DNA of 21,104 nt from a virus, in the IMG/VR virus record IMGVR_UViG_3300031260_000113, positions 1-21,104 of that record, one strand, 5' to 3'. Shown here one piece after another: positions 16,601 through 17,933 of the stretch. Below the pieces are notes generated by a model. The model did no database searches and was not told where the DNA came from. It saw only the letters and a program-made list of their open reading frames with translations. Made by a program: the position numbers and the translations under genes. Within the stretch, counting starts at the first letter, position 1, and the number at the start of each line of letters is the position of its first letter.

Positions 16601-17933
16601 AGCACCTGCACCAGCACCTGCACCAGCACCTGCACCTGCACCTGCACCTGCACCCAGCGCAGTCACCCCCACGGTGACCCCTAATAGGATCATCAGTGAG
16701 TGGACTCCGATCCGGAAGATACAGGATATCACAGCGCAGACCTGGCGGGGAAGCTTCGATGCCGTGAGAACCAACTTCATGAACATGCAGAACACGACCA
16801 GGACCAGCCTCATGAACATGCAGAACACGACCAGGACGGGTACGCAGAAGATACACAGCTCCTTCGATATGATGAGGAGGGATGTGTCCACCGCCATGAC
16901 AGGCGTGAAGAAAGCAGCGACACGCTCCTTCACCGAAATGAAAAACGGGGTTGTTGCAACCGCCGAGAAGACGAAAACAGGGAGCACAAGCCACATAAAC
17001 ACGCTAAGACGGAACATTGAGCGTTTCTTCGCGTACATCCGGAGCCCGGCCGGTGGACCGGCCGGAGCGCCACGCATAGGCGGTGGTGGTGGTAGATCAT
17101 GGAGCTTCCGCCTCCCAGCCCCAGCAGGCCCATCACCACGCCTCGTGAAGGATGAGATCCGACCCCCAAGCCCTGCTCTGATAAGTATGAGTTCTCGTGA
17201 GCTCCGCCGCCTGGAGGAAGAATACTGGGAGGATGGATGCTCATTGCTACCCGCTGGGGGCTGGGATCAGAGCAGACGCTGGATCCCAACCGTGAACAGG
17301 ATGATAGACCGCAGGGAGTTCTCCCCACTCCCTGGGATGCGCGTCAAGGTCGGGGCTTTCCGGAAATGGCCCCCTGAGGGCGTTTTCGGGTCATTGACAG
17401 GTTTCATACCCTTCATTTCACGTGTCATCGGAGCGACACGGTACAGCTTCTACAGGGGCAGCAGCGGCCTGAGCATCCAGCAGCTCCTCAGACGGGGCGC
17501 GTTCAACTGTTATGATGGCGCCAGGGTCGTCGCAGCCCTTGCACATGCCTGGGGCCTCCCTGCTAGCGTCCAATGCGGTTTATCATGGAATGGGATCCCC
17601 CATTGCGCCGCGCGGGTCGCCGGGCTCTGGTTTGACACCACTGCCTTCCAGTACGGGTACGGTTGGACCTCTCCGAAGGTCAGAGGGTACGGTCCAGGTC
17701 CGGATGATTTCACCGTCCCCCGTGGGCCCGGGGAGGTTCATAGCACCGTGAATATCAATGTTGAGGTCCATGCGGGGCCCGGTATGGATGAAGAGGCTTT
17801 GGCTGAGAAGATTAAGCAGAAAATCACCGATCCAACAATTCTTAAGAGGATTGCGGGTGATAGGGTGTTCCTTAAGGCTTTTGACAGGAGTTATGGAGGT
17901 TACTATACGAATGAGGCTAGGAGGAGTCTGTGA
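13614..17933 (+). CDS. Tape measure protein, 1439 aa (probable start ATG 13626), with C-terminal transglutaminase-like peptidase domain
   Basis: MKEIGIVVKLLDRFSGEL N-terminus; long Ala/Gly helical and hydrophobic repeats; STVNINVEV...DEEALAEKIKQKI C-terminal motif; NCYD / PHCAA / WFDTT triad near the C-terminus. Confidence 0.95.
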   Translation: MVVRMKEIGIVVKLLDRFSGELKKGARTAQDSFRAMQNSARTAGTAMNRAGGDARKSLVNVQNETRKASNALTKLGRTATSLKLTPNTDGLRKVSAEATRAGGTITQSFTRAATTSSTAMNHLNTTTTTAAARAAGSMQRISTAASSAMGRVSTLATSAGTRLIGAFSSAATSISSVFSRVGSAASSAFSRIQKGVSGASASLDTLSSNISGLIGAFGAAQLASESFSAAMERDMFAAYMEMNVGAEKAREFASIIRQINIESPAPGGFINKLITGAIANQASLTASELRLLGQVASDYYMASMMMGKNKIDVEQDLITYINTGNTAEMARTSILKDHVDYLGQQKTISERILALDKALKEEGYRGLSQQQRALIYWELTKDLIMEVFTSLAGSVLPILAGVMQAFISLNEATHGWAATLVAGGVGLLVFITALPTLISLVETVSIGFSLLQGALAALPGLFAGAAGGAGLLGSAIAFLTGPLGVALIAVTAITAAFIYFYRTNESFRESVNRLGQSIMSALGGALSWLAGVAGQVLSVLGRGFQALLTVFGPVLSVMVAGLTSLGSALQGLWGALQPVVSAVGGFLSWLGRLIVSFYTTTEGVRSLISALGPLGVWISFLINPLQTLRFIFEQLRMAWYQWVQSAEGQAVLGQLRAAFNDLGVALNQLWAALQPVFQALSDAWAELTKAINPAREAGNAVKGVGSGASQASGPLQIFVEIIRIVGWILQYVVVPAIRLLADIIRALAPVIQVIAMVISGFIQGLILVGQVIGTVVSFISQFNAALMQLLQGNITVTQFLSIVWNAFRATIGGLLMQIVLAVVRFGAQLISAGLRAGAGFVRSVVSAILGLPGRIWMYLLVAVQRARNWTNRMWAIARQTGQKVIDGVMQFLRRLPGMVWNELMNVIDKIKQAPGKAYDAAKKFGKRIWDGIKSALHIKSPSIIQKQITSDIDSVIQHFHDRRADAERAASGWGDAIRRGVGTVSMPSPPAAAMPSAPAPAPAPAPAPAPAPAPSAVTPTVTPNRIISEWTPIRKIQDITAQTWRGSFDAVRTNFMNMQNTTRTSLMNMQNTTRTGTQKIHSSFDMMRRDVSTAMTGVKKAATRSFTEMKNGVVATAEKTKTGSTSHINTLRRNIERFFAYIRSPAGGPAGAPRIGGGGGRSWSFRLPAPAGPSPRLVKDEIRPPSPALISMSSRELRRLEEEYWEDGCSLLPAGGWDQSRRWIPTVNRMIDRREFSPLPGMRVKVGAFRKWPPEGVFGSLTGFIPFISRVIGATRYSFYRGSSGLSIQQLLRRGAFNCYDGARVVAALAHAWGLPASVQCGLSWNGIPHCAARVAGLWFDTTAFQYGYGWTSPKVRGYGPGPDDFTVPRGPGEVHSTVNINVEVHAGPGMDEEALAEKIKQKITDPTILKRIAGDRVFLKAFDRSYGGYYTNEARRSL
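16602..16655 (+). repeat. 9 x GCACC(T/A/C) hexamer encoding (Ala-Pro)9 inside the tape measure
   Basis: Units counted directly; aa 997-1014. Confidence 0.95.
16777..16837 (+). repeat. 33-bp-period tandem duplication (28 nt exact) encoding MNMQNTTRT twice
   Basis: TCATGAACATGCAGAACACGACCAGGAC at 16777-16804 and 16810-16837. Confidence 0.95.

Follow-up and report, generated by a model that had tools for sequence, protein, structure and literature searches.

A candidate Pei-like cysteine peptidase domain in tape measure proteins of viruses associated with pseudomurein-walled methanogens

Little is known of how tailed archaeal viruses get through the envelope of their host cells. In bacterial siphoviruses, the DNA leaves the tail only after the tape measure protein (TMP) has been expelled. 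A wall-hydrolase domain in a bacteriophage TMP was reportedly described by Piuri and Hatfull in 2006, and T5 pb2 is a further TMP with such a domain. Murein hydrolase domains used at entry are often found in the TMPs of bacterial siphoviruses, examples being the motif in the TMP of mycobacteriophage TM4 and the GH23 lytic transglycosylases of enterococcal and lactococcal phage TMPs (PMC10194240). For pseudomurein, a review from 2024 on how archaeal viruses enter and leave their hosts treats the wall only in connection with egress by Pei lysins (PMC10791045). These lysins, PeiW of psiM100 and PeiP of psiM2 (Peptidase_C71 in MEROPS and Pfam, PF12386; PDB 8jx4 and 8z4f), are soluble proteins of about 300 residues with N-terminal pseudomurein-binding repeats (PMBRs), and their activity is given as cleavage of the epsilon-Ala-Lys isopeptide bond in pseudomurein (assays in PMC4592898, as cited in PMC11375127). 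Here we describe a related domain that, unlike Pei, lies inside a 1439-residue structural protein and has no N-terminal binding repeats. It is encoded by IMG/VR viral record IMGVR_UViG_3300031260_000113, a 21,104-bp sequence with an estimated completeness of 59% that was analysed over its whole length and is referred to below as the window.

The TMP gene of the window is a + strand open reading frame (ORF) of 1439 amino acids (aa) at 13614-17933, with no internal stop in its translation. It matches the PHROGs family phrog_58 (E 2e-24) and about 10 further TMP phrogs, and both its size and its position, after the tail tube and chaperone genes and before a Dit-like gene, fit a TMP. Within it, a cysteine-peptidase core of about 105 residues with a transglutaminase fold (aa 1257-1360, 17382-17693, +) was delimited by AlphaFold and by structure and profile matches. 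The core ends 79 residues before the TMP C-terminus, and its position in the same ORF makes it part of a tail structural protein, an arrangement other than that of a stand-alone PMBR lysin. The predicted nucleophile is Cys1299 (codon TGT, 17508-17510, +) in an N-C-Y-D motif (Asn1298-Cys1299), aligned with the Cys of the I-N-C-T-D motif in PeiP and PeiW. The predicted general base, His1330 (codon CAT, 17601-17603, +), aligns with the His of the Pei G-H-Y motif. The third predicted triad residue, Asp1341 (codon GAC, 17634-17636, +), belongs to an F-D-T-T motif at the Transglut_core 'fDpt' position and is presumably equivalent to the Pei Asp, a correspondence that does not come from the alignment. 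The module is thus predicted, from its sequence and modelled structure, to be a catalytically competent Cys-His-Asp peptidase and a distant homologue of PeiW and PeiP.

An earlier sequence-only reading of this DNA had proposed a transglutaminase-like, Pei-type peptidase embedded in the TMP. The peptide that it quoted is present in the TMP translation, and the three residues that it named fall exactly at 17508, 17601, and 17634. It had also placed a Gly/Pro linker ahead of the region, the usual TMP C-terminal motif behind it, and no PMBR in it, all of which the analysis bears out. The linker spans aa 1144-1187 (17043-17174, +) between the TMP body and the C-terminal module. The C-terminal tail (aa 1361-1439, 17694-17930, +) includes the motif HAGPGMDE (17769-17792) and corresponds to the extreme C-terminus of Comamonas-type prophage TMPs, and no PMBR was detectable anywhere in the window. 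In tblastn searches, the tail (query residues 167-216) matched the TMP ends of Comamonas-type prophages and of IMG/VR contigs, and none of the Comamonas-type prophage matches extended into the peptidase region. Since these bacterial TMP matches cover the tail only, the peptidase module looks inserted between the TMP body and a conserved C-terminal tail.

The predicted structure agrees with a transglutaminase-like enzyme. AlphaFold2, run on the 14-sequence domain profile that was our main search profile (A1), returned a model with a mean pLDDT of 86.3 and a pTM of 0.75, with values of 92-96 across most of the core. Cys1299 is the first residue of a helix (model residues 77-90), His1330 lies within a strand (106-113), and Asp1341 immediately follows the adjacent strand (116-118), which in the model is the canonical triad arrangement of the transglutaminase/papain clan. 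The top Foldseek matches in the PDB were all transglutaminase-like cysteine proteases (3isr, 4xz7, PeiP, PeiW, TglA, TgpA, LapG, and CPR-C4), PeiW aligning with a root-mean-square deviation (rmsd) of 2.1 A over 96 columns. An independent VIA-align search of all 48,161 representative PDB chains ranked PeiW first (Z 10.6, rmsd 2.8 A over 101 residues, model residues 35-138) and PeiP second (Z 9.3-9.6), followed by LapG (9.0) and TglA (8.5); CPR-C4 scored 6.2, and arylamine N-acetyltransferases appeared at Z 5-7.5. Every recognised match at Z of at least 7 came from the transglutaminase/papain clan, and a second VIA-align search gave the same order, so that the fold proposed by the sequence-only reading was recovered by Foldseek and by two VIA-align searches alike. 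Among the predicted viral structures of BFVD, only three matches reached about E 1e-3, namely two methanogen-virus TMPs and PeiP of psiM2; no bacterial phage TMP was matched in that search.

Profile comparisons likewise lead to the Pei enzymes. When A1 was searched against 177,635 distinct PDB sequences, the only significant matches were PeiP (E 0.006) and PeiW (E 0.0095), with the Cys and His aligned. An hhalign comparison of 172 TMP domains with 14 Pei catalytic domains gave a probability of 96.2% (E 2.8e-9, 85 columns), raised from 41.8% in an earlier, shallow comparison by the use of deeper alignments. In six-frame scans of the complete psiM2, psiM100, and MSTV1 genomes with A1, the sole matches outside TMPs were their Pei genes, and the Pei profile in turn matches the MSTV1 TMP. 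A further profile, A3, was set aside because its coiled-coil flanks drew mostly helical PDB proteins, leaving PeiP as the only fold-relevant match. Like Pei, the TMP domains combine a transglutaminase-like fold and the order Cys-His-Asp with occurrence in viruses of Methanobacteriales, and they share a Tyr-rich motif (Y-x-[FY]-Y, extended to Y-x-[FY]-Y-Y) about 20 residues ahead of N-C-x-D as well as a G/x-H-x-x-x-x-V-x-G motif. Unlike Pei, they have a shorter His-Asp hairpin (11 versus about 18 residues), and the identity in structural alignments is only about 14-17%.

The family is large and its putative active site is strongly conserved. An exhaustive HMMER search with A1 across 1.84 billion cluster representatives retrieved 417 representatives at E <= 1e-3, of which 281 passed E <= 1e-10. 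A word-indexed search yielded 30 full-length relatives, all 30 of which keep the motifs around the Cys, His, and Asp. In the 174 family sequences that were examined (the window TMP plus those returned by the word-indexed and A1 representative searches), the domain lies 42-172 residues from the C-terminus of proteins that are mostly 1000-4300 aa long, and NCxD is kept in 172. An alignment of 39 sequences, chosen for diversity and reaching down to 25% identity to the window, has only six invariant columns: N1298, C1299, G1314, W1325, H1330, and D1341. The presence of the triad among these six columns, together with the near-universal NCxD, suggests selection on catalysis rather than on the scaffold; conservation to this degree is far beyond chance and confirms the overall observation of the sequence-only reading. 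Some carriers are very long TMP-like proteins (P0053, 4234 aa; P0132, 4289 aa; P0065, 3807 aa); such lengths would point to very extended tails or to fusions of several domains. Several representatives are matched by the profile twice, the better stretch being followed by about 160 residues.

The distribution of the domain follows pseudomurein-walled hosts as far as hosts are annotated. All isolate or host-annotated carriers are viruses of Methanobacteriales. In a tblastn search of 50,697 phage genomes with the window module and the divergent member P0137, matches to the domain were restricted to PhiF3 (Methanothermobacter), Drs3 (Methanobacterium), MSTV1 and vir075 (Methanobrevibacter), and vir249 ('Methanobacteriales'), and none of the bacterial phage TMPs in that collection was matched. 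The domain was therefore not seen to be common in viruses whose hosts lack pseudomurein, a distribution that would have been at odds with the sequence-only reading. One NCBI-labelled carrier is a Methanobrevibacter metagenome-assembled genome (MAG), and three divergent metagenomic carriers drawn from the A1 matches among the cluster representatives have terminase or capsid genes that are nearest to, or match only, those of the Methanobacteriales virus vir249. A match of the L030 portal to Bacillus phages was considered as a host clue and discarded as uninformative, Mu-type portals being widespread; the capsid of the same contig matched only a Methanobacteriales virus.

Two MAG labels would place the domain in bacterial hosts, Synergistaceae and 'Candidatus Hydrothermia', and both assignments were rejected, since the contigs are short and are read as mis-binned. 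The 'Candidatus Hydrothermia' contig (L037, DAOSVL010000015.1) is syntenic with the window, and an IMG/VR provirus record with a TMP domain matching that of this contig carries a PMBR protein. The 'Synergistaceae' contig (L001/L025, JBFXIQ010000081.1) is 5.6 kb long, and in a control search of 201 Synergistota genomes the only strong match was to that contig itself. Both therefore appear to be methanogen-virus contigs that contaminate bacterial bins.

Several relatives encode a wall lysin in addition to the TMP domain, a further difference from the Pei systems. The viral contig closest to the window (96% identical in the region) has a separate lysin with three PMBRs and a C71 domain (3xPMBR+C71, 186.7 bits), located about 7 kb downstream of the TMP gene, past the position at which the window fragment stops. 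A syntenic prophage relative in a 2.7-Mb contig likewise has a C71 lysin (L024:22462-23100), which pairs a bacterial-type PG_binding_1 domain with Peptidase_C71 in place of PMBR. Of 12 other viral records with the domain, six encode PMBR or C71 in a gene other than the TMP, some of these matches being weak. PhiF3 ORF27 (L020:19563-20291), annotated as a 'pseudomurein endoisopeptidase', is not a C71 protein; its match is to Peptidase_C39_2 (E 2e-10), with a resemblance to the C39 domain of a Gordonia phage lysin A, and it has a PMBR match that is below threshold in Pfam (E 0.088; E 1.1e-10 to our own PMBR profile). Lysins of this type may also be encoded by the PMBR-bearing ORFs in G003, G004, and G007, which are about 250 aa long.

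The established sequence, conservation, fold, Pei homology, and TMP position of the domain, along with its association with Methanobacteriales viruses, bear on how it may act. By analogy with bacteriophage TMP hydrolases, this Pei-like peptidase probably cuts pseudomurein during ejection, which would require that the domain be present in mature virions and that the wall be its substrate. Once infection is triggered, the TMP inside the tail would exit tip first, as in bacterial siphoviruses, delivering the peptidase straight onto the host wall at the point of contact. There the virion itself, in place of binding repeats, would hold the enzyme, and the missing repeats are consistent with such delivery. 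Local cutting of the peptide cross-links of pseudomurein would then open the wall, through which the hydrophobic TMP body and, after it, the DNA would reach the membrane. Pei enzymes, being thiol enzymes, require a reducing setting with divalent cations (PMC2989375), the kind of conditions that prevail in the anoxic habitats of the methanogen hosts. We also lean slightly towards a broader picture, in which TMP-borne pseudomurein peptidases that have no binding domains would make up a large and old family, distinct from the Pei endolysins. This family would be the archaeal counterpart of the virion-associated lysins of bacteriophages, and most tailed viruses of Methanobacteriales would use it to pierce the wall at entry.

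A number of points weigh against this interpretation. The window domain scores 16.2 bits (E 0.013; 16.1 bits in a second scan) against Pfam Transglut_core (PF01841), below the cut-off of 23, and neither the window nor its domain matches Peptidase_C71 (PF12386, cut-off 22 bits). BLASTP between the TMP domain and the Pei lysin of its own lineage was not significant (E 0.47). Most metagenomic carriers have no host assignment, and no counter-example was found. The TMPs of psiM2 (AF065411) and psiM100 (AF301375) have no match to A1, which in these viruses matches only PeiP and PeiW. Some structural neighbours within 2 Z units, LapG among them, are protein-cleaving enzymes, and the substrate could accordingly be a surface protein. 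A folded 15-kDa domain on each TMP chain must fit into the tail lumen or stay unfolded there, and it could be lost if the TMP C-terminus is processed during assembly. Since psiM2 and psiM100 have no such domain in their TMPs, not all viruses of pseudomurein-walled hosts need it, and these two Methanothermobacter viruses must have another way through the wall. The domain is common, not universal, among viruses of such hosts.

Within the family, Pfam matches vary around the thresholds. Two relatives exceed the Transglut_core cut-off (P0137, 39.2 bits; P0111, 27.1 bits), and the TMPs of L012 (21.8 bits, or 22.3 with neighbours) and L013 (19.2 bits) approach or reach that of C71; at E <= 0.01, Transglut_core matches 15 of the 39 aligned members and C71 two. 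A phylogenetic tree separates the 14 Pei lysins, as a clade with support of 0.993, from 89 non-redundant TMP domains; with few Pei sequences and a short alignment, this argues only against recent swapping between lysins and TMPs. The non-significant BLASTP comparison led us to reject a recently copied endolysin as the source of the domain. The Pfam scores, the pairwise BLASTP, and the tree together indicate, rather than a canonical Pei, a separate TMP-borne subfamily of the transglutaminase-like peptidases, to which PeiW and PeiP are, as judged from profiles and models, the nearest characterised relatives. The label 'Pei-type' given by the sequence-only reading thus stands as a statement of homology, carried by the profile, the hhalign probability of 96.2%, and ranks 1 and 2 in the structural search, and not as one of membership in Pfam C71 or Transglut_core. 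In the same way, its proposal of a candidate pseudomurein peptidase is supported by fold, Pei homology, and host restriction, with the amendment that the domain belongs to a subfamily of its own.

The main rival to wall cutting is a protease that acts on protein, either processing the TMP or other tail proteins at assembly or ejection or cleaving a host receptor or adhesin-like surface protein. C-terminal processing of TMPs is known in bacteriophages, the protein-cleaving LapG, TglA, and CPR-C4 are structurally nearly as close as Pei (Z 9.0, 8.5, and 6.2), and Transglut_core is matched more often in the family than C71 (15/39 versus 2/39). However, the two nearest solved proteins, by profile and by structure, are pseudomurein enzymes, and the Y-x-[FY]-Y motif upstream of NCxD is common to the family and Pei. 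The restriction of the domain, so far, to viruses of pseudomurein-walled hosts would also be unexplained by a housekeeping tail protease, and we consider a protein substrate unlikely. Generic prokaryotic transglutaminase-like cysteine proteases (PF01841; LapG 4fgo, TgpA 6g49, 3isr, 4xz7) have their core fold and triad in common with the TMP domain, but they are enzymes of the cell, the periplasm, or the membrane that act on proteins, and none of them is virion-borne.

A Cys-His-Asp site of this fold also catalyses transamidation in transglutaminases and acyl transfer in the arylamine N-acetyltransferases found at Z 5-7.5, so the domain might cross-link the ejected TMP or the tail tip to wall peptides or virion proteins without hydrolysis. 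Such transferases score well below Pei. Pei and LapG, which are prokaryotic matches above Z 8 with an established activity, are hydrolases, and we know of no precedent for a cross-linking TMP; a transferase therefore seems very unlikely. It is extremely improbable that the domain is a catalytically inert plug or adaptor of the tail tip with no more than an inherited fold. In known siphoviruses the tail tip does include the TMP C-terminus as a structural element, and the window sequence falls under the Pfam thresholds, but inactive relatives normally lose the triad, which here is invariant in 39 members down to 25% identity, with almost everything else variable and NCxD nearly always kept.

With pseudomurein cutting at entry as the preferred function, the domain resembles the TMP hydrolases of bacteriophages in being an enzyme built into the TMP, and upon infection it would likewise be carried to the wall by the tail and open a local breach. 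It differs in kind, since those are glycosidases or metallopeptidases aimed at murein, whereas the window domain is a predicted transglutaminase-clan cysteine peptidase and occurs in archaeal viruses of pseudomurein-walled hosts.

The remainder of the TMP and its neighbourhood have further features. The central part of the TMP (aa 383-864, 14760-16205, +) is hydrophobic and rich in Gly and Ala, with many segments resembling membrane spans in a Kyte-Doolittle scan; this is typical of a TMP body, and a role as a membrane conduit may be supposed. Between the linker and the peptidase core lies an N-terminal sub-domain (aa 1189-1256, 17178-17381, +) with an 'AGGWD' motif conserved across the family. 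Model confidence is just 67-72 over model residues 1-40 (aa 1223-1262), and structural matches do not cover model residues 1-34 (aa 1223-1256). Ahead of 'AGGWD', a conserved Cys pair (C-x2-6-C) is present in most of the family; the window keeps 'AGGWD' with one Cys (EDGCSLLPAGGWD). The + strand head-tail module comprises a Terminase_6 large subunit, a Mu-type portal, MuF, an HK97-gp10-like protein, a Phage_tube_2 tail tube, a chaperone, the TMP, and the Dit-like protein. The last, the next structural gene (925 aa, 18118-20895, +), has Ig-like N-terminal domains (DUF11/SlpA-like) followed by a match to Pfam SPP1_Dit at aa 834-905 only (26.2 bits, cut-off 25); the DUF11 match, at 23.1 bits, is slightly below its cut-off of 24.6. 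Relatives of the window have the CLIPPER/DUF11+Dit arrangement as well. The gap between the TMP and Dit-like genes is occupied by a 57-aa ORF (17930-18103, +) whose GTG start overlaps the TMP stop, and a small ORF is found there in relatives too (68 aa at 14473-14679 in L037; ORF22 in PhiF3). At the start of the rightward gene block, a 155-aa protein (2432-2899, +) contains a TFIIB-type zinc ribbon (Zn_Ribbon_TF, 32 bits, above cut-off), which fits an archaeal virus.

Both TMP-borne lysins and Pei-type peptidases are already known, and the module described here is a variant of both. We found no description of a TMP-borne pseudomurein or transglutaminase domain in the literature on MSTV1, the gut archaeal virome, and archaeal-virus entry and egress, in work on lytic proteins from 2025, or in a 2026 preprint on psiM2, a survey whose scope left aside the 2023 compendium of methanogen viruses in Nat Microbiol. 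In GenBank, carriers are labelled 'hypothetical protein', 'prominin', or plain 'tape measure protein', and PHROG 38386, which covers the module, is annotated as of unknown function.

A TMP-borne Pei-like peptidase would provide a concrete mechanism of entry through pseudomurein that is testable by mutation. It would parallel the solution found by bacteriophages, using an unrelated enzyme fold suited to a different wall chemistry. Pei enzymes have been used to permeabilise methanogens and explored as a means against ruminant methane (PMC2989375, PMC6189367), and the family adds hundreds of diverse catalytic domains, including some from thermophilic and gut lineages. The domain could also flag mis-binned viral contigs and serve host prediction in viromes. 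If the proposed function is true, its sequence would mark uncultured viruses as likely to have a host with a pseudomurein wall, and the family would be a new source of enzymes that lyse methanogens.

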